DNA from: a virus
Taxonomy: Duplodnaviria; Heunggongvirae; Uroviricota; Caudoviricetes
Virus record (IMG/VR): IMGVR_UViG_3300029705_006930
DNA length: 64,000 nucleotides
Reading direction: 5' to 3' (one strand)
This document shows positions 2,621-45,379 of this stretch, piece after piece. Within the stretch, counting starts at the first letter, position 1; the number at the start of each line of letters is the position of its first letter. The position numbers and the translations under genes were made by a program. The notes beneath the pieces were generated by a model. It made no database searches. It was not told where the DNA came from and was given only the letters and a program-made list of their open reading frames with translations.

Positions 2621-3442
2621 CTACCCATTTAATGCGCTGTCAATACTGTCCGCCATCGCATTAATTTCGCCCTGTGTTATTGTAAGGTATGTTTTTGTTA
2701 CGCGCTGGTCACTGTGCTTGTACTTTGCCTGCAAGATGTCCATAACACTGTCGTTGTTCATTGTTTTGCGCGCTGTGTATCCGTATGTTTTGCGCAGTGT
2801 ATGTGTTGCCACGTTCTGTGTGAGGCCCGCCGCCTTTGCACCTTTCTTTAAAATGTCCCACATTTGGTGCAGGCTCATTTGCCCGCCATTGTCACTTTTC
2901 TGGGACTTGATAAGGTAGTCGCTCATTGTATAGTTGCCGTTGAGATGTTCAATGTACATTTCAATGGCTTTTTTTGCGCCCGCTGTTATTTTGTTGCGAT
3001 TGTACTTGCCGGTCTTTTGTTCGTACACATCATAGTAATCTTTTACTGTACCATCCTCATTGAGAACGTCACTGATGCGCGCTCTGAGCAGGTCACTGCC
3101 TCTGTCCCCAATGGTGCAGCCAAACACTACCATCATATAATTGCGGTACTTGTGTCGGCCCCCATGTTCAAGGAAGTAGTTTGCGAGACGCTGAAATTCG
3201 TCCGCGCTGTAAAGAGGCTCTGCACTCTGTGCCTTTTTCACGCCATTGCTTTTGTAAGGCGACGCTGTTCTTGGTGCACGCTGTTTTGGCGCTGGCTTTG
3301 CTGCGGCCATTGCCTGAGCCACTGCATTTGCTATGATGCTCTGGAGCTCGTCCTGTGTCATTTGGAGCTTTGGTGCTGCCGCCTGTGCAGGAAAGTTGAT
3401 TGTATTATTCTGTACGTTTTGTTCTTTTGGCTGAGCGTTCAT
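2621..3442 (-). CDS. int: Tyrosine site-specific recombinase / integrase
   Basis: C-terminal catalytic box HTLRKTYGYTARK ... AKYKHSDQRVTKTYL (R..HxxR..Y). RBS AAGGAGG before the ATG at 3442. Confidence 0.8.
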   Translation of the reverse strand: MNAQPKEQNVQNNTINFPAQAAAPKLQMTQDELQSIIANAVAQAMAAAKPAPKQRAPRTASPYKSNGVKKAQSAEPLYSADEFQRLANYFLEHGGRHKYRNYMMVVFGCTIGDRGSDLLRARISDVLNEDGTVKDYYDVYEQKTGKYNRNKITAGAKKAIEMYIEHLNGNYTMSDYLIKSQKSDNGGQMSLHQMWDILKKGAKAAGLTQNVATHTLRKTYGYTARKTMNNDSVMDILQAKYKHSDQRVTKTYLTITQGEINAMADSIDSALNG

Positions 3443-3514
3443 AGGTGCCTCCTTGTTTGGATTTTTGTTTCCTCTTTTATTGTCTATATTATACCATGAG
3501 AGGGGCTCTTTGAT

Positions 3515-3585
3515 AACGGGGTTTTTGAAAAAACCAAAGAACTTTTTTAAATTTTTTGTGGCGCTTTATATATGTTAATGTATAT
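3515..3585. promoter_or_regulatory. Palindromes upstream of int (GGGGTTTTTTGAAAAAACC; TATATATGTTAATGTATATA)
   Basis: Perfect inverted repeats in the int 5' region; candidate operator or arm-type/att sites. Confidence 0.3.
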
Positions 3586-3599
3586 AAGGAAAGGTTGAT

Positions 3600-4240
3600 G
3601 CGGTTGTTGCGGGGCAGTGTGATTTGGCGCAAAATTAGGCGATTTTTAGGGTGTTTGCAATTGTGTAAGGTCTGGTGTTGGAAATTTGGAAAGGTGTCTT
3701 AATGCCTGAATTTGAGGCTCTGGTGGGGTTATTCTATCACAGTGCTGACGCACTGTGGCGTCGCTGTGCTCCTTTATCTTATCAACGATGAAATGTTTGT
3801 TATTATGTTGCGCGAGAGAGGGTGTGGGGCGCGAAATTTGGGGGCCGGAGAGGTGGGAGGCGCGGTTTTGGGGCGAAATTGGGGCCCGGGTGGCCGGGGC
3901 TAAAATGGGCGTTTCCGGGGGTGTTTTGAGGGGTGTTTGGATAAGTTGCACAAAAATAGAAAAGCCACAGCCGGCTCTGTATGGGGCTAGCTGTGGTTCT
4001 TGTTGTTTATGGGCGTGATTTTGTTGTTTTTATAGTGTTTTGTGGCAAAAATGGTGAAAAAATGTGTAAAAAGGCGCGAAAATGCGTCAAAATGTGTGAT
4101 TTTTGATGATTTTTGGGTGGATTTGGTGTGGAATCAGGGCGAAATGGTGTGGAATGTTGTGTTTGGAGGGTGTTGTGGGGGTGAAAAGTGGACAAATATT
4201 GCTTTTTATGAGCCGAGAGTGAGATATAGCGACGCGTAGC
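3600..4240. other. G+T-skewed non-coding region (C/A-poor on + strand) with G-runs and short repeated motifs
   Basis: Long stretches almost devoid of C. Repeated GGCGCGAAA, GGTGTGGAAT, GAAAATG. Hairpin AGCCACAGCcggctctgtatggggctaGCTGTGGTT. Only low-complexity spurious ORFs. Confidence 0.5.
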
Positions 4241-4306
4241 TTATTATATACATTAAATCTGTCGCAAAGTCAAAATATCCCCCTACGGCAGTTTAAACCG
4301 CTTTAT

Positions 4307-4340
4307 ATCGGTAAATATCAACCTTTGTGAAAAGTTGATA
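4307..4340 (+). terminator. Rho-independent terminator-like hairpin (ATATCAAC..GTTGATAT + T-run)
   Basis: 8 bp perfect stem followed by TTTTTT. Confidence 0.5.
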
Positions 4341-4390
4341 TTTTTTGTACAAAATTTTTCGATTTTTCAAAAATCGGACGCTTGTTGCTA

Positions 4391-4419
4391 TTGACAATCT
4401 GTCGCTCAGGATTTACAAT
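4391..4419 (+). promoter_or_regulatory. SigA-type promoter TTGACA-N17-TACAAT for the sigma-factor gene
   Basis: Consensus -35 and near-consensus -10. Flanked by palindrome CGATTTTTCAAAAATCG (4357–4375) and inverted repeat GTGTAAACcgacaaGTTTACAC (4428–4449). Confidence 0.55.
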
Positions 4420-4545
4420 TTTAAGTGTAAACCGACAAGTTTACACCTACAATTCAATATATCTGTTGTGATTGTTCAAAGGGGGGTACAGATACACAAT
4501 CACAAAATCACACACTATTCAATATTTAAAGGAAGGTATTTATCT

Positions 4546-5241
4546 ATGAAAAAACTCACAAGAAAACAGCTTAAAGCAATAAAAAACACATCAAGCTACA
4601 AATATTTTGAACAATTGAAAACCCTTAAAGGCTCAATGCCGGCAGACAGCAAAAAAACCTATATAGAGCCAAATTCAGACCTTGAAAAATTCGCAAAATT
4701 GCAAGTTATGACCTTAAACAAATATATCCGCCAAGACGGCAAGGGACACAACTTGGCAGCACAAGTTTTGCAAGATTTACAACAGCAAGCTTGTTTGCTT
4801 ATTCTGGAAAACCCTTTAAGCCTTGACTGCTTTACAACAGAACAAGATAAACAGACAGAACAACAGCAACAAGCATTTAAGGCGGTTAAAAATGGTTTAT
4901 ATAGGTATTATTATCACAACTATACAAGCCGCAGCACATCTAAAATTCACAATAACCCGTCAAGTTACATTGCAACAGCTACATATCAAGCAACCGACGA
5001 TATCGGCAAAGATGCACGCGACAGCTATCAAATGGACCTTTACAAATTACATCTGGATGCAATTTTGACAATTTTAACAACGGATGAAAAATACATCTTT
5101 AATGGTTTATTTGTTGAAAACTTAACACAAAAACAACTTGCCGAAAAACTCAATAAATCACAAACTTATGTAGCAAAAACACTTGCAAATATCCGTAGCA
5201 AAATCAAAGCAAATGACCTTGATACACCGATAAACAATTAA
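4546..5241 (+). CDS. Phage-encoded sigma-70 family sigma factor
   Basis: Region-4 HTH LTQKQLAEKLNKSQTYVAKTLANIRSKI; region-2-like upstream segment. RBS AAAGGAAGG; start at codon 68 of the track ORF. Confidence 0.6.
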   Translation: MKKLTRKQLKAIKNTSSYKYFEQLKTLKGSMPADSKKTYIEPNSDLEKFAKLQVMTLNKYIRQDGKGHNLAAQVLQDLQQQACLLILENPLSLDCFTTEQDKQTEQQQQAFKAVKNGLYRYYYHNYTSRSTSKIHNNPSSYIATATYQATDDIGKDARDSYQMDLYKLHLDAILTILTTDEKYIFNGLFVENLTQKQLAEKLNKSQTYVAKTLANIRSKIKANDLDTPINN

Positions 5242-5253
5242 ACCATTATATAA

Positions 5254-5286
5254 AAGGCGGTCACATTTGTGACCGCTTTTTTGTTG
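5254..5286 (+). terminator. Rho-independent terminator (GCGGTCAC-attt-GTGACCGC + T-run)
   Basis: Read directly after the sigma gene stop. Confidence 0.7.
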
Positions 5287-6053
5287 TTCAGGTTATCAAA
5301 AAACATATAAATTATGTACAATTGTTGTAAAATATGGATAAATAAACCATTTTAAACTTTTTGGTAATATTTTTGAGTTTTCATTCAATATATATGCGAC
5401 AGCTAATAGCGGTTAGCGGTTAGGGTGTTAAGCCTTGCCCGCTTGACCGCTTTTTGTCTGTCTGTTTTGCTATGCTTAATTTGTAAGTATAGGACAGGAC
5501 AACCTACCAAGTAGGGACAGCCCAAACGCACAATGTTAGCGTGTTTTGGTTGAAAAAATTTCGGTTTTTTCTTACCTATTGATTGTGTCCCTTTAAAAAA
5601 GGACAGCGGTTCACTCCGCAAGCAAGCCGTCGAGAGATAGTAGATGTTGACACCCTCTTATAAACTGCAAGTAAGGTAGTAAAACAAAAGCCGTAAACGG
5701 CTTGGCTCTTTAAGGTGCCGTTTAGCTAACGGATAAGCGGAAATTGTTCAAAAAAATAATTTTTGTTTGTGAGCGGTTCATTGTGAATATCCAAGGATGT
5801 ACACAACCAAAATGAATTGCCGTCATTACATCTTAGGATGTAAAGGTGGTTACGCAAACGAACAAAAACGAAATTTTCAACAAGAGTATGTGAGAATGTT
5901 TACGATATTTCCAAAGCCGACAGTGAAATGATATATCTGTCGGCTTTTCTTGTAAGCGAATAAGCTCAATAAAAAGTTTGTTCTCTTACAAGATTGTACA
6001 CTCGGTACAGTCTCATTGTAAACATACGCTACATATTCCAAGGAGTAACAATT

Positions 6054-7846: not shown

Positions 7847-8071
7847 ATGGAATACGCAGATTTGATAAACAATTTAATTGCATATCGAAAAAGTCAGAAT
7901 ATTACAACTGTCGAACTTGCTCAAAAAATGAATGTAAGTCGACAATCAGTATATAATATTGAAACTTTGAAAAAAGCTGCACCAGATGAAACTTTGCAAA
8001 AAATGTGTCAAGCATTAAATTTGGAACTTGAAATTGTCCCAAAGCAATACAACATCAAATCCCAAAAATGA
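7847..8071 (+). CDS. XRE-family HTH transcriptional regulator
   Basis: ITTVELAQKMNVSRQSVYNIE, a classic Cro/CI-type HTH. Confidence 0.7.
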   Translation: MEYADLINNLIAYRKSQNITTVELAQKMNVSRQSVYNIETLKKAAPDETLQKMCQALNLELEIVPKQYNIKSQK

Positions 8072-10481: not shown

Positions 10482-11450
10482 ATGTTCACCAATATGACAG
10501 AGTTTGTGCGAGCGTACAGACAGGGCTGTCGATTTTTATATGCATCATTTGGTTTTGATTTTTCAAAGCCAGTAATTTTTTACAAGACGCGAGGGCCGAT
10601 AACAATTCGCAAACTGGTGCAAAACATTGGCATCTCACACGAGACACATAAAATCGTTATGATAATGCAACAGCCAAATGCAGGACGCACTTGGGAGCGG
10701 AGTCCAAGACTTATAGAAATAAATGCAGAAAACAATTTTGAAATCAATAATTTTAGGCGCAACTATTCTGACCGTCGTATCTCGTATCTGTTTGATAATT
10801 TTAACAGAAAAATAGATGCAAACACTTGGCGTCGTCTAGAAGAAACTATAATTTGGGTTGTAGCTCAACGCAAAGAGCATATTAAAGAAGCACAACCATA
10901 TAGAACACAGCCACAGCCAGAACCATATGTGCGTTATCAGCCGTATACATTGCGCAGTGCTACTAGTTACTCAAGTATAACATTGATACCATATGACAGA
11001 AACAAAGTGTCTGTTTATAAAGGTTTTCAGCCCGGAAAATGGCCACATAAATTGTCAGAAATACAAGACAAAAATGGCTACTACATATATGATATGCGCA
11101 CCAAGTATGCCAACAAAGTAGAAGAAATAAAAGCACAGCGTCGCAAACGCTTGGTTGACAATTATCCCTTTGACGGTATTATTGAAAAGTTTGAAGCTGA
11201 ATATATGGCAGCCAAAAATGAAGTAGCATATTGTATTTTATCGACAGATAACTATACAGTATTGTCTTTAGCTTCGACCGCATTGGGATACATATCATCG
11301 ACGAATAATGCAATCAATACGTTTAAATATCAGGTACAGAAGAAAGTATTCAAAGATATGGACGAAGCCAAACGACGTCGTGCAGATGTTGAAAATAAAA
11401 TAGTTTCGATGAAACGCAGTGTTGCAAATATGCGTTCAACAATGTACTAA
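10482..11450 (+). CDS. Hypothetical protein
   Basis: RBS AAGGGGGAG; 322 aa. Confidence 0.6.
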   Translation: MFTNMTEFVRAYRQGCRFLYASFGFDFSKPVIFYKTRGPITIRKLVQNIGISHETHKIVMIMQQPNAGRTWERSPRLIEINAENNFEINNFRRNYSDRRISYLFDNFNRKIDANTWRRLEETIIWVVAQRKEHIKEAQPYRTQPQPEPYVRYQPYTLRSATSYSSITLIPYDRNKVSVYKGFQPGKWPHKLSEIQDKNGYYIYDMRTKYANKVEEIKAQRRKRLVDNYPFDGIIEKFEAEYMAAKNEVAYCILSTDNYTVLSLASTALGYISSTNNAINTFKYQVQKKVFKDMDEAKRRRADVENKIVSMKRSVANMRSTMY

Positions 11451-11500
11451 AGCGCAAGCTTAAAATAAAAAATTTTATTCACATGAAGGAGAACACAACA

Positions 11501-11866
11501 ATGAATGATTTTATTCAGATGGCAGAAAATCTTATGAGAGAAAATGCTGAACTCAGAGCAGAAAATGCGCGCTATAGAGAGCGCTTGAACGAGGCGCACG
11601 AAGTGACTGCGCCAATTGAACCGCAGAAATGTCTGCGTGATATCATCGCACCACTTGTGGAAAAATACGATGACAAAACAATTCACAATGTAAGCACATT
11701 CCGTCGTGTCTATGAAGAAATGGACATTGACTGGTCGGCTGAAGTTGTGAACTGTATTAAGGCACACAACCTGACACGTATTCCACATAAGGCATACATA
11801 GTAGAAGTTTCACCAGTTTTGACCGCCGAGTTTGAACGCGTGGTGCATTTGCTCTTGGCACAGTAA
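11501..11866 (+). CDS. Hypothetical protein
   Basis: RBS GAAGGAG before the internal ATG. Confidence 0.5.
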   Translation: MNDFIQMAENLMRENAELRAENARYRERLNEAHEVTAPIEPQKCLRDIIAPLVEKYDDKTIHNVSTFRRVYEEMDIDWSAEVVNCIKAHNLTRIPHKAYIVEVSPVLTAEFERVVHLLLAQ

Positions 11867-11914
11867 AGGAGAATACATATGAAAAAGATTTTTTAATTTT
11901 TTAAAAAAAGCTAT

Positions 11915-11942
11915 TGACAAATTGATATGTAAAGTGTATTAT
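11915..11942 (+). promoter_or_regulatory. SigA-type promoter TTGACA-N16/17-TATTAT
   Basis: Directly upstream of the three leader repeats. Confidence 0.55.
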
Positions 11943-11950
11943 GTAGTTGA

Positions 11951-12070
11951 AATAACATACAGCTCATCTTTTTGAGACTGCTTTATTTTTTACAATAATA
12001 ACATACAAATCATCTTTTGTAGCTTTTAATCCTTGATTAAGGAAATATTTTTTTTAAGCAAATAACACAC
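11951..12070 (+). repeat. Three copies of a 21–23 nt motif AATAACATACAAATCATCTTTT in a 5' leader
   Basis: Copies at about 11951, 11996, 12051. Two more copies at 39954 and 40011. Confidence 0.6.
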
Positions 12071-12098
12071 AAATCATCTGTCAAAAGGAGAAATTGCA

Positions 12099-12224
12099 AT
12101 GTTACGTATTGTTAATGATAGGGGACACCTCCTCGCATATTGCGGAAACAAATTTCTTGTTTCGGCAGACAACGAGCGCGAAATGCAAAAAGAACTTGCA
12201 GAGCTCGGTTACACAATGACATAA
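12099..12224 (+). CDS. Small protein (41 aa)
   Basis: RBS AAAAGGAG; below the ORF-track cutoff. Confidence 0.35.
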   Translation: MLRIVNDRGHLLAYCGNKFLVSADNEREMQKELAELGYTMT

Positions 12225-12280
12225 AGGCAAGCCGGCCTTTATATATACAAACACTATTTTTTATAAAAGGAGATTTTAAA

Positions 12281-12727
12281 ATGGCAAAACTTAATCTTAC
12301 AGCAAATGTGCTGTCCCTTGAATCCGCACTTAAACTCGAAGATATCAAAAACGCAATGCGTTGGTGTCCAGATGCTCTCACAGTTATGGACGAAAAAGGC
12401 GAAGAAGAACTCTTCTCTGTTGCTGCAGGTACTTCAAAAGGTTATATCTCACCATACGGCATCACATTTGCTGCTGCAACAGTTCGTGGTGGTAAAGCTT
12501 GCTACACACGCGAAGTTGCACCAGGCACAGAAATGAAAGATATTGCTGAAGTTGTGCTCGCTGAATATGACAAACCAAAAGCATATCTTGAAGTTGTTGA
12601 AGCTCAGGTTGCTGAAGCTCTCGCAAAAGTTGCTGAACGTAGAACAGCTATTATGGCTGAACTTGCTGGCGAATGCGAATGTCCAGACTGCACACCAGAC
12701 TGTCCAACAGCACAGGGCGAAGAATAA
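12281..12727 (+). CDS. Hypothetical protein with strong codon bias and C-terminal Cys cluster
   Basis: RBS AAAAGGAG. Higher GC than neighbours. Followed by an A/C-rich, G-poor leader before the next gene. Confidence 0.6.
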   Translation: MAKLNLTANVLSLESALKLEDIKNAMRWCPDALTVMDEKGEEELFSVAAGTSKGYISPYGITFAAATVRGGKACYTREVAPGTEMKDIAEVVLAEYDKPKAYLEVVEAQVAEALAKVAERRTAIMAELAGECECPDCTPDCPTAQGEE

Positions 12728-12850
12728 TCTTCGCCCAACCTAAACAAACTTATCCGCAATTTAACCCAATATTTTCCATTAACATTAACAAACTTTTAAA
12801 CCGAAATCGTTAACAAACAAACTTAAACACATAAAAGGAGATTAAATATT

Positions 12851-13078
12851 ATGCTTAGAATTTATGTTGGTACAAACACAAACCGTACAGCTTACACACT
12901 TTCCCCAGAAACAACCCTCAGAGCAGCTTTTGAAACTGCAGGCGTGAACTATGAAATGGGTACCGCAACTCTTGATGGTTCCACACTTCAGCCGGGCGAC
13001 CTTGACAAGTCTTTTGCAGACTTCGGCATCACAGGTACAGCTTACCTCCTGAGCATTGTTAAAGCAAACAACGCTTAA
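12851..13078 (+). CDS. Ubiquitin-like beta-grasp protein (ThiS/MoaD-like), non-GG C-terminus
   Basis: 75 aa; MLRIYVG...TLDGSTLQPGD...AYLLSIV pattern resembles ThiS/MoaD. First gene of a Ubl/JAB/E1 operon. Confidence 0.45.
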   Translation: MLRIYVGTNTNRTAYTLSPETTLRAAFETAGVNYEMGTATLDGSTLQPGDLDKSFADFGITGTAYLLSIVKANNA

Positions 13079-15484: not shown

Positions 15485-16174
15485 ATGGACTTAAGTAAAT
15501 CACTTGACTGGTTTAATCCAGACAGCGTTTCGGAACGCATACATATTATCGGATGCGGTAGTGTAGGTAGTACAGTTGTGGAACTGTTGGCAAGATTCGG
15601 TCTTACAAAGTTCACTCTGTATGATTTTGACCTTGTTGAACCTCACAATATCGCAAACCAGATGTTCAGAAAAACGGACATTGGTAAAACAAAAGTTGAA
15701 GCATTGCAGCAGATTGTATGTGAAATCAATCCAGAGGCGGGCAAAGATATTAAACTTGAACCAGAAGGTTGGCACGGACAGCAGTTGTCTGGCTATGTAG
15801 TTCTTGCTGTTGATAGCATTGAATTGCGTAAAAAGATTTGTGAAGGTTTGCAGATGAATATCTTTGTTAAAGCTGTGTTTGATTTCCGTACAAGTTTGCT
15901 CAACGCACAGCATTATGCAGCCAATTGGCAGGACAAAAAACATCGTGATGACCTCATTGCAACAATGCAGTTCACCGATGAAGAAGCTGCGGCTGAAAAC
16001 CCAGTATCAGCGTGTGGTGTAACACTTGGTGTCGCACCAACAGTAAGACTGATATGCACACTAGGCGTAAGCAATATGATGAACTTTTTCAGAGAAAAGA
16101 AATTGAAAAAAGTTGTATTGGCAGACGCATTTAATTTTGATGCTGACCCTATGGTATTACCTATGGGTCAATAA
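15485..16174 (+). CDS. E1-like ThiF/MoeB-family adenylyltransferase
   Basis: IIGCGSVGSTVVELLARFGL...LYDFDLVEPHNIANQMF, a Rossmann GxGxxG plus D.D.VE.sN..RQ signature. Confidence 0.75.
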   Translation: MDLSKSLDWFNPDSVSERIHIIGCGSVGSTVVELLARFGLTKFTLYDFDLVEPHNIANQMFRKTDIGKTKVEALQQIVCEINPEAGKDIKLEPEGWHGQQLSGYVVLAVDSIELRKKICEGLQMNIFVKAVFDFRTSLLNAQHYAANWQDKKHRDDLIATMQFTDEEAAAENPVSACGVTLGVAPTVRLICTLGVSNMMNFFREKKLKKVVLADAFNFDADPMVLPMGQ

Positions 16175-16199
16175 TACACAATAAGAGAAATGTTTATGG

Positions 16200-16500
16200 T
16201 GAATATTGCACATTGTATGGCAAGCTTTTGCTGTTAGCAGAAGTAAAGAAATGGTAGAGAACATAGAGGCAGGCGCTTAAGGAGCACGCTGAGGTGATTC
16301 CTAAGTACTGCAGCTTCTTGCATCCGACGAGCTCTGAAAAGGTAGGTTTAACAGGAGGATTGGATTACTTACAAGTGAAATTAACCAGTTCAAACCGTAA
16401 AGCTCATCTGAAATTAACGATAAATCCCAGATTTGCATCTCTTTTATCCGGGAATGAAGGGCTTAAAACTATAGCTAGACCATAAACAAGATAGGGAGGA
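16200..16500 (+). ncRNA. Candidate structured non-coding RNA upstream of the RT (contains repeat copy 1)
   Basis: 320 nt gap with repeat TTGCTGTTAGCAGaagtaaaGAAATGGTAGAGAA. An alternative GTG-start 63 aa ORF (16294..16485) with RBS AAGGAG cannot be excluded. Confidence 0.25.
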
Positions 16501-16504
16501 CATT

Positions 16505-17860
16505 ATGGTTTATATCACATATCCAGCACCTAACAAATTTCATCAGATTACATTTGAAGAAATGATGTCGGGCAATGTTAATACAGATAAATTAAGAATT
16601 TTAGGCGGACATAATACGCTTACTTTGCATCTTAACGATGTACCTGCAAACTTAAAAGGTCAGACTTCTGTACGCAAAATGATTGCAGATTTGCAGTATT
16701 TTGTAGGTGTATATTATGACACACTGATGCCACAGATAAAAGAATTTGAGAAGCTTTCAGATGCTCAGCGTCGCAGCGTCAAACAGCGTGACAAGATTGA
16801 AAATTATTTTGAACAGATGGGCGCAACTGCAAATGATGAAGACTTGCAGAAAATCACTGAACAGGTAGATGCGCTGCAGTGTGAAGTTGCAGAACAGCAG
16901 TATAAATATGCTTACTATACATTCGATTTGCGCAAAAGTTCAGCGCCGGAACACATTCCATTGTGGCGACTGCCAAAAGAATACAGACGTACAATCAATG
17001 CTCCGAACATACATCTTAAAAATGCGCTATATGAACTTAAAGAACTGTTTGAAAATATGATGATACGTACATATCATACTGCATCATTTGCGTATGTTAA
17101 ACATCGTGGAACTTTGGATGCTGTAAAACGTCATCAGAGCTGGGAAAGCAAATGGTTTGCAAAGTTTGACTTTTCAGATTTCTTTGGTAGCACAACAATT
17201 GACTTTGTTATGCAACAGTTCTCTCAAATATATCCGTTTAATATGATTTGTGCATATAAAGATGGTAAAGAAGCTCTTTATAAAGCATTGCAGTTGTGTT
17301 TTTTGGACGGTGGACTTCCACAGGGCACACCTATTAGTCCTCTCATCACAAACATAATGATGATACCATTTGACCACGCAATGTCAAAAGCTCTTAAAGA
17401 ATTTAAATATCCAAACAAACACGGTAGTGAACGTTTTGTGTATACAAGATATGCTGATGACCTGCTTATCAGTTGCCGTGTGGATTTTAAAGTGGAAATT
17501 ATTCAGGCATTTATTCTGGAAACTTTAAAATCAATGAATGCGCCTTTTAGCCTTAACGTTAAGAAAACTCGTTACGGTTCTAGTGCAGGTAGCAACTGGA
17601 ATCTTGGGGTGATGCTTAACAAAGACAATAAAATTACAATCGGTGCAGAAAACAAGCGCAGACTTAAAGCTTCTTTGAATTCATTTATCCTTGATATGAA
17701 GAATGAAAAACCTTGGGATATTTCTATGGTGTATAGACTCAGAGGTCAGATTTCTTATTATCGTAATGTGGAAAGGGAAGCAACAAATAACATCATTGCA
17801 GCGATGAACACAAAATATGGTGTTGATGCAGAAGCAATGATGAAATCTATTATAAGTTAA
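16505..17860 (+). CDS. Reverse transcriptase, retron/Abi-like
   Basis: RT motifs FAYVKHRGTLDAV, KFDFSDFFGS, LPQGTPISPLITN, YTRYADDLLIS (YADD). Motif-7 region NLGVMLNKDNKITIGAENKRR aligns to the retron VTGLVIS...IGRE block. Confidence 0.8.
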   Translation: MVYITYPAPNKFHQITFEEMMSGNVNTDKLRILGGHNTLTLHLNDVPANLKGQTSVRKMIADLQYFVGVYYDTLMPQIKEFEKLSDAQRRSVKQRDKIENYFEQMGATANDEDLQKITEQVDALQCEVAEQQYKYAYYTFDLRKSSAPEHIPLWRLPKEYRRTINAPNIHLKNALYELKELFENMMIRTYHTASFAYVKHRGTLDAVKRHQSWESKWFAKFDFSDFFGSTTIDFVMQQFSQIYPFNMICAYKDGKEALYKALQLCFLDGGLPQGTPISPLITNIMMIPFDHAMSKALKEFKYPNKHGSERFVYTRYADDLLISCRVDFKVEIIQAFILETLKSMNAPFSLNVKKTRYGSSAGSNWNLGVMLNKDNKITIGAENKRRLKASLNSFILDMKNEKPWDISMVYRLRGQISYYRNVEREATNNIIAAMNTKYGVDAEAMMKSIIS

Positions 17861-38322: not shown

Positions 38323-38420
38323 ATTATTTAAAAAAGTTCTTCGGAACTTTTTAAAAACCTATTATCAAAAGATGGTTTGTGTGTTATTATTATAGTAGAA
38401 AACAGGAAAGGAGAAAGTGT

Positions 38421-38861
38421 ATGGGATTTAAGTTTATACCTACAACAACAATTCCAAAGTCGGGCGAAATTCGGCTTGGATATGTAAATGCAGATAATGG
38501 CAACCATAAATATACTGGTATCAGACCATATTTGATTGTATCAAACAATGTGTACAATAACACATCAAACCACGCGGAAGTAATTCCTTTTACAACACGT
38601 AGATTTGACAGTAAAAATCCTGTACACATTCAGTTTCCAAAGGGTGAAGTTAAAGGCTTAAATGAAAATTCAACATTAGTAATTGAAGGCCGCACAACTC
38701 TGCCACATAACCAATTAACCGAACCAATTGGTTATTTCAATAGTGATAATTGGAAGAAGGCTGCGACTGGTCTTCTGTATCAGAATCCTCATATTAAATA
38801 TGCCTTTGATGAAGGAGTGCACAATACATTATTTTTTAATCATTTATTGACTGCTAAATAA
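38421..38861 (+). CDS. MazF/PemK-family endoribonuclease toxin-like protein
   Basis: GEIRLGYVN...GIRPYLIVSNNVYNN..EVIPFTT..PVHIQF matches the MazF/PemK core (RP.LV.S...N......V.P.T). RBS AAAGGAG. Confidence 0.6.
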   Translation: MGFKFIPTTTIPKSGEIRLGYVNADNGNHKYTGIRPYLIVSNNVYNNTSNHAEVIPFTTRRFDSKNPVHIQFPKGEVKGLNENSTLVIEGRTTLPHNQLTEPIGYFNSDNWKKAATGLLYQNPHIKYAFDEGVHNTLFFNHLLTAK

Positions 38862-38938
38862 AACGACATCACCATATTTCATCTTGAAAAATTTACATAT
38901 TATTGTTATTATGTAAATTATAAGATGAGGTGAAATAC

Positions 38939-39931
38939 ATGGATTATACTCGATTAATTGATGAATTTTTAGATGCAGTTGCAAGAAATGAAAATCCAAA
39001 ACAGCATTATAATTATATAAAAGTATTTTCTATCATTAAGAACTATGTTATTGAGAAAAATAAAAGCCTGGAAGAAATGAACCTAAAAGAGCTGGATGAA
39101 TTATTTTTCACTCGCTTCACAGGCAGAGCAGATAGTATCAAGCGCATAGTCACTTATTGTCGTCGATATATAAGATGGCTGCAAACAACGGGCCATTTAT
39201 CTTTTAGGGACGCTGAAAGTCATATTTTATTTGACTTAAGATATTATAATACAAGTTATATTACATCACATAAATTGTATCGTGCAGCTAAATTAAGCAG
39301 TGTGTTTTTTAGTACCGAAGAATATGTTGATTATATGTCTACTGTTTTCGATGAAAAATTAACACAAGGCGACAACACTCGTTATTATACCGATATCGCA
39401 GTTTTTTATTTAAGCTGGTTGGGATTTACAATTGATGAAATGCTGAAATTGAAGAAAAATGATTTTGATTTTTCATCGCGAACTATTGCCGGCAAATATA
39501 TCTCTGATGAGCGAATGCTTACCTTTTTAAACAAGTATAACCAATCTGATACTTATGAAAAATTACGCAAAGGCCATAATTTCACAACAGAAGAATATGT
39601 TTATAATGAATATGAGTTTTTAAAAGGGAAAACGACAGCTTTAAATGAGATGGCCATTTATAACATATTCCGAACAACACGACAACGTATCAATGAATTT
39701 AACAGGGATAATATAGATAATCAAATTGAAAATAAAGTTGATTTCAACAATATTAAAAAATCTGCACTGTTTGAATATATTTATACAGTCCAGAAGATTT
39801 CATATTTTGAAACAACAACTTCTGGTGTTGCTCTTTTCGCTTCGTTTATTAAAGATGAAATACCGACAAGTGCAATTATGCCGTTAATTGAAGATTATAA
39901 TCTATGGGTAGAAATTAGAGGCTCGCTGTAA
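38939..39931 (+). CDS. Hypothetical protein (N-terminus weakly like recombinase SAM/core-binding domain)
   Basis: ATG at codon 4 of the track ORF; no tyrosine-recombinase catalytic box seen. Confidence 0.5.
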   Translation: MDYTRLIDEFLDAVARNENPKQHYNYIKVFSIIKNYVIEKNKSLEEMNLKELDELFFTRFTGRADSIKRIVTYCRRYIRWLQTTGHLSFRDAESHILFDLRYYNTSYITSHKLYRAAKLSSVFFSTEEYVDYMSTVFDEKLTQGDNTRYYTDIAVFYLSWLGFTIDEMLKLKKNDFDFSSRTIAGKYISDERMLTFLNKYNQSDTYEKLRKGHNFTTEEYVYNEYEFLKGKTTALNEMAIYNIFRTTRQRINEFNRDNIDNQIENKVDFNNIKKSALFEYIYTVQKISYFETTTSGVALFASFIKDEIPTSAIMPLIEDYNLWVEIRGSL

Positions 39932-39953
39932 AGGCGAGCTTCTAAATCACTCA

Positions 39954-40030
39954 AATAACATACAAACCATCTTTTAATATAGGTTATGTATGTTCTTTTT
40001 TAAAACTTGTATAACATACAAATCATCTTG
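39954..40030 (+). repeat. Two more copies of the ATAACATACAAA(T/C)CATCTT motif, with an inverted partial copy between
   Basis: Copies at 39954–39975 and 40011–40030. GGTTATGTATGTT between them is the reverse complement of the motif core. Confidence 0.55.
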
Positions 40031-40207
40031 GGAAAAGGGGCTGACAATATGAAATGAACCATAAGAAGAGGAAGACGATTTTCCTCATGTATTTTATGTA
40101 CGTTTTTAATTTTAATATTTTCAATTTGTCCCACAGTTAATGCTTACGCATACAATGAGGGCACAAATTCAGATGTATATTCATTATATGGCAATTTTGA
40201 TATCAAG

Positions 40208-40738
40208 TTGAAGAAATATGCTTATTTGCAATGTCGACAAAATAATTTGTCATACTCCATGTTTTTAGCAGTCGTATACAACGAAAGCAGATTTCAGACA
40301 GATGCCGTGCACATAAATCAAAATGGTTCGATAGATAGAGGATTGTGTCAGATTAATGATGCTTGTTTTGACTTTTTATATAACAAGGGTGTTTTGAATT
40401 CAAAAGAAGAATTATTTAATCCTTATATAAATATCGACTGTTATATAGCACTGATGAAGTATCACAAAACGTATACAAGAGACGATAGCAAGGCATTACT
40501 TAGATATCAGGTAGGCGAAGGTAAATATCGCCGTAAATATAATGAAGGCACACTGACTAACCCAACACATCAAAGGGTTTTAGATTTGGAATTAAAATAT
40601 CGTACATATTTAAATTCTCTTTCAGCACAGTTAGAACTTCAGAATGTTATTACAACACCTTATTTGTTGAATGATTATCCGGAGTTAAATCGATTGTTGC
40701 TTTTTAAAATATATGACACACATAACATACTAATTTGA
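40208..40738 (+). CDS. Lytic transglycosylase (SLT domain), probably frameshifted from an upstream signal-peptide ORF
   Basis: ESRFQTDAVHINQNGSIDRGLCQIN SLT motif. Open frame extends upstream without ATG (..PTVNAYAYNEG..). Separate frame at 40054 encodes MNHKKRKTIFLMYFMYVFNFNIF signal-like peptide. Confidence 0.55.
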   Translation: MKKYAYLQCRQNNLSYSMFLAVVYNESRFQTDAVHINQNGSIDRGLCQINDACFDFLYNKGVLNSKEELFNPYINIDCYIALMKYHKTYTRDDSKALLRYQVGEGKYRRKYNEGTLTNPTHQRVLDLELKYRTYLNSLSAQLELQNVITTPYLLNDYPELNRLLLFKIYDTHNILI

Positions 40739-42238: not shown

Positions 42239-43393
42239 ATGGGATTTGGTAAAAAGAACAGAGTGGACTTGAATCCGCTTCATTATAATATAGGCCTTTT
42301 GGGTGAAGGTGGTATCGGTAAAACTACATTGTTTAAAGAAGTTTGTGAAACTCTTGCGCCAGAAGTAAATGGTGCAAGCGGATATCTTCATTTGGACATT
42401 GGTAAAGAGGATGGTTCAGAAGCGCTCGAAGGTCTTAATTCAGAAAAGGTTCGTAATTGGGCAAAATTTGCAGCAGTTGTAGATGATATTGTAAAGAATA
42501 AATATACTGACCCTGATTATGCCAATTTGCAAACAGTTATTGTGGATACATGGGATGAACTTATTAAAATTACAGAACCTGAAGTAATCCGTTTACACAA
42601 TAAAGAAAATCCAGATAAACCTAAAATTACTTCTATTAAACAGGCATATGGTGGATTCTCTGGTGGCCCGGATAAAGTAACTGAGCTCATTTTGGATAAA
42701 CTTTGGGAACTTAAAGAAGTTGATGTGCACTTTATGACAATTATCCACACAAAATCTAAGGAAGTAGATGACCCTGTTACTGGTGCATCATATTCAATTC
42801 TGACATCAGATACTACTCAGAGATATTTCAATGCTCTGAAAAATAAACTGCATTTCCTTGGTGTTGCTTATGTCGACAGAACCATTGTCAAGGAAAAAAC
42901 TGGCAAGAAAGATATTATGACTAAGAAGGATATTGAACGTAGTATTGTAACAGATGAAAAGCGTGTAATTAAATTCAGAGATAATAACTATAGTGTGGAT
43001 GCAAAATCACGTTTTGCAGAAATTACAGATAGTGTACCTTTTGATAAAGATGAATTCATTAAAGCTATCCAGGATGCAATCCTTGCTGAAAGTGCAAAAG
43101 GTAATCGTACAGAAGAAGAAAATAAAAAGCTACAGAAGGAAGCAGACGCAAAGAAAACAGAACAGGCAAAATCATATGCAAAATCTAAGGTGGAAGCTGA
43201 AGACTATGCTGAAAAATCCAATGAATATATTGCATATATCAAAGACAATTTCACCAAATGTACTGCTGCAACCAAAGCAGAAGTAAAAGCAACTATGGCT
43301 GAATACAACTTTGAAAAATTTACTGATGACAATATTCCGCTTGAGGCATTGGAAAAGATTACCAATATTATTTCAGCTTCATTGAAAGGTTAA
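42239..43393 (+). CDS. P-loop NTPase (AAA/RecA-like), K/E-rich C-terminus
   Basis: Walker A GEGGIGKTTL. Confidence 0.6.
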   Translation: MGFGKKNRVDLNPLHYNIGLLGEGGIGKTTLFKEVCETLAPEVNGASGYLHLDIGKEDGSEALEGLNSEKVRNWAKFAAVVDDIVKNKYTDPDYANLQTVIVDTWDELIKITEPEVIRLHNKENPDKPKITSIKQAYGGFSGGPDKVTELILDKLWELKEVDVHFMTIIHTKSKEVDDPVTGASYSILTSDTTQRYFNALKNKLHFLGVAYVDRTIVKEKTGKKDIMTKKDIERSIVTDEKRVIKFRDNNYSVDAKSRFAEITDSVPFDKDEFIKAIQDAILAESAKGNRTEEENKKLQKEADAKKTEQAKSYAKSKVEAEDYAEKSNEYIAYIKDNFTKCTAATKAEVKATMAEYNFEKFTDDNIPLEALEKITNIISASLKG

Positions 43394-43397
43394 AAGA

Positions 43398-43916
43398 ATG
43401 GCAAGAATAGTTACTTGTGCTGTGACAAAAGAAAAAGGAACCAGTGATGTTTTTTATAAGGCGGACAATGGAAAATGGTATAAGAGCGAATCTGTATTTC
43501 GTCAGTTTCAGAAAGATAAACACACCAGAGAAACTATTCAACGTGTTTTACTTACATATCTTGGATATCAGAAAGGAGAGCCATTTCCGGCTCTCCTCAA
43601 CAAAAAGATAAAAGAATATTCTTTTTATTCACCAGAAGTATTGCTTGAAACAATTACAAAGTGTGAAAAAGACATTACATGGGCATTCAATAATAAAGAA
43701 TTTTCTTCTACACAAGGCAAAATATTTTATATGTTTGCAATCATTTCAAATCATATCAGTGATGTGAATAGACAAAACAATAAAGTGAATGAGCTAAGAA
43801 ATAAACAAACTCAAAAACACATCGATACCATCCAAGAAATGGACATTTCAACCATCGGCACATCAAAAAAAGGTAAAGATATTACGGATTTCTTGGAGGA
43901 TGATTTATGGAATTAG
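43398..43916 (+). CDS. Hypothetical protein
   Basis: ORF track. Confidence 0.5.
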   Translation: MARIVTCAVTKEKGTSDVFYKADNGKWYKSESVFRQFQKDKHTRETIQRVLLTYLGYQKGEPFPALLNKKIKEYSFYSPEVLLETITKCEKDITWAFNNKEFSSTQGKIFYMFAIISNHISDVNRQNNKVNELRNKQTQKHIDTIQEMDISTIGTSKKGKDITDFLEDDLWN

Positions 43917-45379
43917 ATGTATTGTTGCAAAAAATTAATGAACATCGTGGTGAAATTGAAGCCCCATTTGTTTTTTGTTTATGGAAGAATCCGGATTTAT
44001 ATGATGATTATAAATTTGTAAACGAAAAAGAAGACGATATCATTCGTAATCCTGATGCACAGTTTTATTTCAATTTAGGTAGAGCACTGTATAAAGCTGG
44101 ATATCGCAATTTTGACCATATTGCTGTCTACACTTTTCTTCAAGACAAAGAAACAATAAAAAAGCAGTTTGACAGTTATGGTGGTTTCAAAGAAGTTGAA
44201 GAATTTAAAGGCTTAGTCAGCATAGAGAATGTTAATGCATATTTTGATAAAGTAGCAAGACTTAATATTCTTGATGAAATGTGCAAGATGATGTTTTCAT
44301 CATTTGATAAACTTGAAAAGTTTGATAGGATGACAAGTCAGCAGATTTACGATTATTTTGAGTACAAATTAAATGACATTAGTATCACCGCAACGCATGA
44401 TGTTGAAGAAGAAAGTTTGGTCATTGATGATGCTTTTATTGAAGAGTGCAATAGCGGTGATACTGTTGGAATCAGTTATGGCAAGCAGTGCCCATTATTG
44501 AATTATTTAACATTAGGAGTTCCACTTGGTGAAATGTATATGATTGCTGGACATAGTGGTGCAGGCAAATCTAGTTTTGCATTTGAAAATATGGCTATTC
44601 CAATGGCCCAAGACGGCATAAAGGTAGCTATTGTTTCTAATGAAATGCGAAGCAAAGATTATAAAGTAATGTTACTTGCCCATATATTAACAAAAGACCT
44701 AAATTATTGGGGCTTGACACGCAAACAAATAAAAATAGGCCACTTTACAGACGAACAAAAGATAATGATTGCCAAGGCACAAAAAATTAGTAAAGAAAAA
44801 TATAGCAATCTCAAATTTGTGAAACTGTTTGATAATGATGTTTCTAAAGTTATGAAATACATCAAGATGAACGCCAAAAAAGGTTATCAGGTTTTTCTAT
44901 GGGACACAATGAAGAGTGATGATAGTCTTGATGAAAAAATGTTTTTGCAATTATTAGTCAATAGCAGAAAGGTTTTTCAGTTGGCATCAAAAGAAAACAT
45001 TGCAATTATTACAACTTATCAGTTGGCACTATATACCGTTAATCAAAGATATTTGGATGCGGGATGTCTTGCAAATGGTAAACAGATAAAAGAAGTGTTT
45101 TCTGAAATGGTTTACATGCGTACTTTATGGGATGACGAATACACAGGCAAAAAATTTGATTGTCGACCATACAATTTACAGCGTAATGCAGAGGGCAAAT
45201 ATACTGGTGTTAAGCAATATGTTGAATTAAACCCAGATAATAAATATATAGTTGTCTTTTTGGATAAGACTCGCAATGATGAAGACAAGCAGCAGGTTTT
45301 ATACGAAGTAAACGGTCGTTTTAATAGCTGGAAAGAAATTGGCCGTTGCAACATAGTTAATGAACATGGAAGGTATTAA
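43907..45379 (+). CDS. DnaB-like replicative helicase
   Basis: Walker A GHSGAGKSSFA; RecA-fold C-terminal domain with long N-terminal domain. Confidence 0.7.
   Translation: MELDVLLQKINEHRGEIEAPFVFCLWKNPDLYDDYKFVNEKEDDIIRNPDAQFYFNLGRALYKAGYRNFDHIAVYTFLQDKETIKKQFDSYGGFKEVEEFKGLVSIENVNAYFDKVARLNILDEMCKMMFSSFDKLEKFDRMTSQQIYDYFEYKLNDISITATHDVEEESLVIDDAFIEECNSGDTVGISYGKQCPLLNYLTLGVPLGEMYMIAGHSGAGKSSFAFENMAIPMAQDGIKVAIVSNEMRSKDYKVMLLAHILTKDLNYWGLTRKQIKIGHFTDEQKIMIAKAQKISKEKYSNLKFVKLFDNDVSKVMKYIKMNAKKGYQVFLWDTMKSDDSLDEKMFLQLLVNSRKVFQLASKENIAIITTYQLALYTVNQRYLDAGCLANGKQIKEVFSEMVYMRTLWDDEYTGKKFDCRPYNLQRNAEGKYTGVKQYVELNPDNKYIVVFLDKTRNDEDKQQVLYEVNGRFNSWKEIGRCNIVNEHGRY

Follow-up and report, generated by a model that had tools for sequence, protein, structure and literature searches.

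The best described relatives of the locus presented here are the lysis-lysogeny switches of the Bacillus phages SPbeta and phi3T. In SPbeta the master repressor is MrpR, also named YopR or SroF-SPbeta, which in ChAP-seq (chromatin affinity purification followed by sequencing) was found at ten promoters bearing the repeated element SPBRE (Lazarevic, 1999), among them those of yorE in the replication block and of yopM in the operon that also holds mrpR; binding and repression were confirmed by electrophoretic mobility shift assays and lacZ fusions, and loss of the recombinase function was reported for the protein (Kohm et al., 2023, PMC10516654). In phi3T a monomer of SroF encircles an asymmetric box of 26 bp, Phi3TRE, of which it reads 24 bp; it has multiple sites far apart in the genome, and each phage has its own set of repressor, box and antirepressor (bioRxiv 10.1101/2025.11.27.690993). 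PDB 9rd5 and 9rgl cover SroF with its box and with the antirepressor Sar. The lysis-lysogeny system of SPbeta and phi3T has also been reported to act on the MazF of the host. To our knowledge, SPbeta and phi3T are the only phages in which a master repressor of the integrase fold that acts on scattered asymmetric boxes has been characterised. Here we describe an element of 24 bp which is present in six copies in a stretch of 64,000 nucleotides (nt), hereafter the window, from the IMG/VR virus record IMGVR_UViG_3300029705_006930 (Caudoviricetes). We consider it probable that the six copies are the operator boxes of a lysogeny repressor of the MrpR/SroF family, encoded in the same window at 38939-39931.

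The element is asymmetric with the consensus wAATAACAyACAAAyCATCTTTTg. Its 16-nt core, AACATACAAATCATCT, is found at 6 sites in the window when up to two mismatches are allowed, where 0.22 are expected, and none of 100 dinucleotide shuffles reached six. With a 24-nt weight matrix made from the copies the six sites score 30-34.5 bits, the runner-up site in the window scores 16 bits, and the maximum across 20 shuffled windows was 17.9 bits. All six copies are intergenic and they fall in three regions that span 28 kb. The conservation covers about 24 positions, with ACATACAAA as a segment of the box; the element is AT-rich with A/T tracts flanking it and has no dyad inside. Since the sequence beyond these ~24 nt is unrelated between the copies, the copies represent a short box rather than one end of some longer repeated sequence. 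Five of the copies had been named in a first-pass annotation of the DNA, correctly or to within 1-4 nt, with a unit of about 22 nt which turned out slightly too short; a motif search of the window found these five and a sixth full copy, inverted, that had been missed.

Boxes 1 to 3 lie on the plus strand at 11950-12083. They had been described as tandem, whereas they are dispersed direct repeats whose starts are 46 and 64 nt apart and which do not follow each other head-to-tail. Box 1 (11950-11973, AAATAACATACAGCTCATCTTTTT) starts 8 nt past the -10 hexamer of P1 (11914-11942, plus strand), so it covers about +1 to +24. P1 is a near-consensus SigA-type promoter, TTGACA-17-TATTAT, which had been recognised before; it matches 11 of 12 positions and is one of only seven sites in the window which do so. 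Box 2 (11996-12019, TAATAACATACAAATCATCTTTTG) overlaps the -10 hexamer (AATAAT) and the start region of P2, a promoter-like site at 11972-11999 on the plus strand (TTGAGA-16-AATAAT, 10 of 12 positions), and box 3 (12060-12083, AAATAACACACAAATCATCTGTCA) stands directly 5' of the ribosome-binding site of a gene of 41 amino acids (aa) at 12099. The second cluster, at 39953-40032, holds boxes 4 (39953-39976, AAATAACATACAAACCATCTTTTA) and 5 (40009-40032, GTATAACATACAAATCATCTTGGG), both on the plus strand and 56 nt apart. The former begins 22 nt past the stop codon of the repressor gene, the latter abuts the ribosome-binding site that opens the transglycosylase/replication block. Box 6 (38366-38389, TAATAACACACAAACCATCTTTTG on the minus strand) fills the spacer of a rightward promoter-like site at 38362-38390 (plus strand, TTATCA-17-TATTAT with a TG), and the first gene behind it encodes a PemK/MazF-like toxin (38421-38861, plus strand; Pfam 1.2e-12). 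Predicted promoters are thus overlapped by boxes 1, 2 and 6.

A partial inverted copy near box 4 had also been annotated. It is real (39983-39995, minus strand, GGTTATGTATGTT) and is a 12-bp complement of box 4, with which it can form a hairpin followed by a T run; scored as a box it gives 8.1 bits, which is within the noise. The hairpin has a z-score of -3.2 and is not conserved in relatives, and it may be a weak terminator after the repressor gene.

The gene at 38939-39931 (plus strand), which lies between the copies and was absent from the first-pass annotation, encodes a protein of 330 aa; the open reading frame (ORF) beginning with the GTG at 38930 would give 333 aa. An exhaustive HMMER search recovered 16 distant relatives of similar length, so that the family has 17 members. 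The profile of the 17 members matches the YopR/MrpR entries of the PDB (8bjv, 8a0a, 8bj6) over the full length with an E-value of 1.6e-9 and phi3T SroF (9rd5) with 9e-6, hhalign against YopR gives a probability of 96.4% (E 1e-9, 255 columns), and 12 of the 17 members match the Pfam family MrpR_N_CB. An AlphaFold2 model (pLDDT 88, pTM 0.80) was compared to the PDB with Foldseek: the seven best matches were only YopR, MrpR, "Phi3T SroF bound to DNA" and the SroF-Sar complex, with the true recombinases (Tn1549 Int, Cre, lambda Int) ranking below them. The DNA complex 9rd5 was the second-ranked structural match and had the best TM-score and root-mean-square deviation among the top matches (0.53 and 6.9).

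The residues of the catalytic set are informative. The box I Arg position is a T in the 330-aa protein; it is never R in 19 aligned sequences, and the Arg is absent from all 17 family members (G-F-T/S/E...). The HxxR region reads N-I-K-K-S here and is not conserved, and the only catalytic-set residues conserved are Ser275 and the C-terminal Tyr, the Tyr in most family members. The constant absence of Arg I together with the lack of conservation of HxxR therefore argues for a DNA binder of the MrpR/SroF type and not for an active recombinase. Judged from the profiles and the predicted fold, the 330-aa protein is a remote, full-length homologue of MrpR/YopR/SroF with an integrase fold that appears catalytically dead. 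In the alignment it is ~15% identical to MrpR; the base-contacting residues K233/F234/H237/R238 of SroF align with Y/N/R/T, an assignment that is tentative at 14% identity. The 322-aa protein encoded upstream of boxes 1-3 (10482-11450) is not MrpR-like.

When SPbeta MrpR was used as query in tblastn, homologues were found in 76 phage records, almost all of them large phages of Bacillota (120-185 kb). Among them are Geobacillus E3, Tsamsa-like phages of B. anthracis, SPbeta-like phages of Staphylococcus and Clostridium botulinum c-st, and the genes are mostly annotated "integrase" or "hypothetical".

Five syntenic relatives of the locus (L071, L074, L075, L077 and L078, with the repressor proteins P0003, P0004, P0005, P0007 and P0008) carry further evidence. 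They share the gene order FolD-like, small genes, PemK, MrpR-like, SLT transglycosylase, a gene of ~400 aa, AAA_24, YorH, and DnaB onward. Their PemK proteins are 63-75% identical (aa) to the one in the window and their MrpR-like repressors 22-26%. For L071 and L074, whose replication genes are ~70-75% identical to those of the window at the nucleotide level, the nucleotide homology ends at 38393-38406 and restarts at 40172-40217, and between these borders it is confined to the PemK gene and the very start of the repressor gene. What is not homologous is therefore the PemK promoter spacer, where box 6 lies, the repressor gene itself, and the intergenic stretch that bears boxes 4 and 5.

Directly before the ribosome-binding site of SLT each of the five relatives carries a different element of its own. 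In L071 it is ATrCGCTAAATAGAAAC (box ATGCGCTAAATAGAAAC) in two copies 65 nt apart, in L074 TAGATACGGTAAATCGAAAA in one copy, in L075 a core ACGGCTAACC in two copies 64 nt apart, in L077 CACGGrCAAAA (box ATATCACACGGACAAAAC) in two copies, and in L078 TAACTGCAAGGTTTCGCAAAA in one copy. Each of the six syntenic phages thus has at this position a box unrelated to those of the other five, and in four of them a TATAAC-like hexamer lies 5' of it. As far as the 10-kb flanks of the relatives extend, the allele-specific element is found only at this place and in the spacer of the PemK promoter. The copy in the spacer is, in three of the six phages, an inverted copy of the phage's own repeat, and it is not linked to the repressor block, from which it is separated by the conserved PemK gene. 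As an 18-mer it matches the own repeat at 17/18 positions in the window and at 16/18 in L077 (none of 300 shuffles as good in either case), and at 14/18 in L078 (9/300). The PemK/MazF-like gene itself is always found directly upstream of the hypervariable repressor gene, in the window as well as in the five relatives.

The annotation had asked for copies in related phages, and the answer is twofold: close variants with 95-97% identity retain all six boxes, while the syntenic relatives carry unrelated repeats that track the repressor allele. One of these variants, the contig SRR27608110_15450 with 95-97% identity, shares the repressor allele as well as the six boxes. In the variant inspected around boxes 1-3, none of the intergenic substitutions seen touches the core of a box. 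Near the genes of two more distant family members, P0009 (where SLT is again the next gene) and P0010, no clear repeat was seen. An exact search for the box in IMG/VR gave 64 loci with one match each, which is the chance level, and none of these loci had more than one strong match to the weight matrix. A search with the PemK alignment gave one weak match in genome contigs, three weak ones in JGI metagenomes and none in IMG/VR.

The comparison with MrpR and SPBRE shows a number of common traits. In both cases the protein has an integrase-like CB+CAT fold without the full catalytic set, a phage-specific box is repeated in several distant intergenic regions, and boxes precede both the replication block and the operon to which the repressor gene belongs. 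The -35/-10 spacer of a promoter-like site is filled by box 6, and the SPBRE copies that we recovered from the SPbeta genome, about tAGACAAATACAAAtAATATGTATAtaat, likewise lie between the -35 and -10 hexamers. The replication module is also SPbeta-like (Sak4-like AAA_24, YorH, DnaB). Six copies in 64 kb may be compared to about eleven in the 134-kb genome of SPbeta; the neighbour of the repressor gene is a PemK/MazF toxin here, whereas it is yopQ/yopP in SPbeta.

With phi3T SroF the locus shares the long (24-26 bp), asymmetric and AT-rich box with A/T-tract flanks, and the length, the asymmetry and the flanks fit with one monomer per box; the monomer binding itself is taken from SroF and assumed for the protein here. 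Also shared is that repressor and box occur as phage-specific pairs. A more distant parallel is found in the immunity regions of the lambdoid phages, in which CI and Cro act on the OL/OR operators, the repressor being a helix-turn-helix (HTH) dimer and the palindromic operator triplets flanking the repressor gene. As in lambdoid heteroimmunity, phages that are otherwise similar have exchanged a hypervariable repressor gene along with its operators, and this defines immunity groups. The differences are that the repressor here has an integrase fold and is presumably monomeric, and that the operators are asymmetric and scattered over tens of kilobases.

The reading of the elements as operators of the MrpR/SroF-like repressor builds on what the sequences show: six copies with their positions relative to predicted promoters and ribosome-binding sites, a neighbouring protein that belongs to this family by homology and fold and has lost catalytic residues, and boxes that are exchanged with the allele in the relatives. 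Binding, repression, the monomer stoichiometry and the roadblock in the following scheme are carried over from the work on SPbeta and phi3T, and we infer them by analogy. One repressor monomer would clamp each asymmetric box, as in the crystal structure of SroF with DNA, and the bound boxes would shut three transcription units. At the first of these, the strong promoter P1/P2 (11914-11999), boxes 1 and 2 would occlude RNA polymerase over the start sites, and box 3 precedes the first ribosome-binding site; the unit opens an accessory operon that includes E1-like and retron-type reverse transcriptase (RT) genes. At the second, the promoter of the PemK/MazF-like toxin, box 6 would occlude RNA polymerase between -35 and -10. 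The third is the entry to the transglycosylase and DNA-replication block with boxes 4 and 5. Boxes 3, 4 and 5 may either block a weak promoter, to which the TATAAC-like hexamer would belong, or act as a roadblock to read-through, which could come from the co-directional repressor gene. The general idea of the first-pass annotation, a phage-specific cis-regulatory element which precedes blocks of genes and is bound by a regulator encoded by the phage, holds.

The repressor gene has a promoter-like site of its own (38884-38912, plus strand, TTGAAA-17-TATTAT with a TG), which has no box and is kept in all six alleles. As it is near-identical in the six and without a box, the repressor gene is probably not autoregulated through the box. 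The region 38884-38917 with this site (TTGAAA-17-TGtTATTAT) contains a near-palindrome, TACATA(T)AT..ATTATGTA, which is almost identical in the six alleles and could be the control site for a different, conserved regulator.

A number of observations weigh against the proposed role of the boxes. The single-sequence match of the 330-aa protein to Pfam MrpR_N_CB (E 7e-5) has 23.8 bits where the cutoff is 27, BLASTP against SPbeta YopR is not significant, and the homology to MrpR rests on the profile and fold comparisons. The resemblance of the box to SPBRE is weak: they share a core ATACAAAT only, and 23 of 1000 column shuffles were as good, for which reason we do not claim that the two boxes are homologous. 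Most boxes here are at or after +1 or beside a ribosome-binding site, unlike SPBRE in the promoter spacer, and boxes 3, 4 and 5 do not overlap any recognisable SigA promoter. The swap of boxes 4 and 5 in the relatives could be hitch-hiking, because these elements are physically linked to the repressor gene. The unlinked copy in the PemK spacer is significant in three of the six phages only; it is marginal in L075 (14/18) and in L074 (11/12 of the core, direct), neither being significant alone, and the PemK promoter spacer of L071 has no copy of its own repeat. Unlike in phi3T, no Sar-like antirepressor, no LexA box GAACN4GTTC (although the LexA box of the host may differ) and no arbitrium genes were found in the window; AimR was not recognised, and none of the window ORFs of ~300-410 aa that were scanned has an AimR-type Pfam match. 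It should be noted that the visible DNA is 64 kb of a phage that is probably larger.

It was proposed in the first-pass annotation that the element might be an RNA leader motif. That the boxes act in RNA, as the site of an RNA-binding regulator, as a boxA-like antitermination site or as a processing site, is in our view improbable. Boxes 1-3 and 5 would indeed be transcribed in sense within short leaders, and boxes 3 and 5 abut ribosome-binding sites, but box 6 is antisense to the only gene downstream of it. Both leaders fold like their shuffles (z -1.01 and -0.96), the box alone is unstructured, and no Rfam family is matched at the gathering threshold. The protein which co-varies with the box has a fold that clamps DNA. 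A site for a host factor such as boxA would moreover be expected to be conserved among relatives; boxA-like antitermination was rejected because the sequence of the element is allele-specific.

Another proposal was that the box is a promoter element whose -10-like part, CATACAAAT, is read by a sigma factor of the phage or, as a SigE/SigK-type site, by a sporulation sigma factor of the host. The core does hold CATACA-AT, five of the six copies point in the direction of the downstream genes, and a protein of the sigma-70 family is encoded at 4546-5241 (NCBIfam sigma70-ECF 1.5e-8, below the cutoff). We nevertheless find the proposal very improbable. There is no conserved -35 partner upstream of the copies, the conservation runs 3' of the would-be -10 into CATCTTTT, and box 6 is inverted and faces a terminator, away from any gene. 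A reading by a host sigma factor would not lead one to expect that the element changes wholly with the repressor allele in relatives.

The phage sigma factor can be judged from the variant SRR27608110_15450, in which the window segment 4352-8081 with the sigma-like and XRE genes is replaced by unrelated DNA while, in this 97%-identical phage, the six boxes are kept. At the position of the sigma gene the variant has an ORF of 293 aa without similarity to the sigma-like protein and without a Pfam match, and no homologue of the sigma-like protein was found in the ~33 kb retrieved from this phage, nor did tblastn with the sigma-like protein give a match in any related locus. The XRE gene (7847-8071), whose product had been suggested as a further candidate binder, has been replaced there by a gene of 25% identity; besides, the box lacks the symmetry of typical HTH-dimer sites. 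The retention of the boxes without the sigma-like and the original XRE genes argues against both proteins as the binder, and with ~33 kb of the contig covered it is not proof. The 3.7-kb segment 4352-8081 (its counterpart in L079 is 2717-5452) behaves as a replaceable regulatory cassette.

We give scarcely any weight to the view that the boxes are recombination sites of an active integrase-fold protein, in which a toxin-repressor cassette between the inverted box 6 and boxes 4/5 could be inverted or exchanged and the direct copies at 11950-12083 would permit a deletion of 28 kb. The fold is that of a tyrosine recombinase with the C-terminal Tyr kept in most family members, boxes 6 and 4 enclose the gene as inverted repeats at a distance of 1.56 kb, and the homology with the relatives breaks near the boxes. 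Against this stand the absence of the catalytic Arg I in 17 of 17 members and the unconserved second Arg/His positions. The boxes furthermore lack the inverted half-sites and the 6-8-bp spacer of recombinase core sites, and the four contigs, which come from different samples, agree in orientation. Nor does the variable part form a single cassette, since the conserved PemK gene interrupts it between the boxes.

Iterons of a replication origin, read by an initiator encoded in the adjacent replication module, are just as hard to believe in: boxes 4 and 5 are directly repeated in AT-rich DNA just ahead of the replication block, but half of the copies lie elsewhere (at the accessory operon 28 kb away and at the toxin promoter), each phage has only 1-2 copies at the SLT-proximal site, and the relatives have replication genes that are ~70-75% identical at the nucleotide level and a completely different repeat.

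If the boxes are operators of the MrpR/SroF-like repressor, what is most interesting about the locus is that six repressor-box pairs occur in nature and that a toxin gene stands behind one of the boxes. No recognisable antitoxin is found beside the PemK/MazF-like gene. One may speculate, and we consider this possible but on the whole doubtful, that in this uncharacterised clade of large SPbeta-like phages the integrase-fold repressor is a hypervariable immunity determinant in which each allele has its own 24-bp monomer box and in which one box gates a PemK/MazF toxin without antitoxin. When the repressor is lost, an mRNA interferase would be set free as a host shut-off, an addiction system or an abortive switch, a phage-encoded counterpart of the link to host MazF that has been described for SPbeta and phi3T, and the six pairs would give a first recognition code for monomeric DNA readers of the integrase fold. 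A conserved PemK toxin under a box is in any case a concrete and testable link from lysogeny control to a toxin.

This type of switch is known from the Bacillus phages SPbeta and phi3T; new is its occurrence in a distant, unstudied lineage. The findings suggest that the switch logic of MrpR and SroF operates in a very distant, unsampled lineage of phages. The six repressor-box pairs should help to explain the reading of 24 bp by a recombinase fold that acts as a monomer, and to predict the immunity groups of phages known from metagenomes. They should also be of use in annotation, where MrpR-like genes are routinely mislabelled "integrase" or left nameless.

The surroundings of the boxes are those of a large phage or prophage segment, with ~35% G+C and nearly all genes on the plus strand. 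Its distance from known phages is evident from several searches. Megablast of 11500-13000 against 50,697 phage records gave no match, tblastn of the 330-aa protein against phage records gave none either, and the Pol III alpha protein (gene at 49278-51809, plus strand) is at most 39% identical to phage proteins, its best matches being an uncultured phage, Geobacillus E3 and large Bacillus anthracis/cereus phages. Pol III alpha belongs to the SPbeta-like replication module behind boxes 4 and 5, which further contains the AAA_24 (Sak4-like) gene (42239-43393), a gene of the YorH Pfam family (43398-43916) and DnaB (43907-45379), with primase, a PD-(D/E)XK nuclease and PHP between DnaB and Pol III alpha.

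The first recognisable gene behind boxes 4 and 5 is the SLT transglycosylase ORF (40208-40738, plus strand). It is preceded, at 40049-40057 after box 5, by a start-stop mini-ORF ATGAAATGA with a strong ribosome-binding site in front, the stop of which overlaps the next ATG; the same mini-ORF is found in L071 and the form ATGTTTTGA in L074. The transglycosylase gene looks split, with a signal-like ORF of 28 aa (40054-40140) in a frame different from that of the SLT ORF, whereas most relatives have a single gene for a transglycosylase of 229-238 aa. This is not a single-read error, because the close variant L068 has the same short form.

The operon behind boxes 1-3 is accessory and contains an E1/ThiF-like gene and a retron-type RT gene. 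Word-index protein searches with its 148-aa and 466-aa proteins, and with the repressor, each matched only the query's own cluster at 98-99%, and the operon is consequently without distant relatives. In 15485-17860 the E1/ThiF-like gene matches the E1-E2 system of PADLOC (3e-17), and the RT gene matches RT_II-A of PADLOC (2e-41) and the retron St85 family of NCBIfam (1e-46, below the cutoff). Ahead of the RT gene lie 330 nt (16175-16504) that hold no ORF and could encode an msr/msd RNA; Rfam gave no match in this interval.

Finally, near the left end of the window, at 2441-2490 and 2520-2625, three head-to-tail 16-nt units CTATATAAAGAGAtACg are followed by an almost pure G/T stretch. The units are bordered by the start of a minus-strand gene of 317 aa and by the end of a gene, likewise on the minus strand, for a small tyrosine integrase (2621-3442), and they may be arm-type or att-related sites, or operators.

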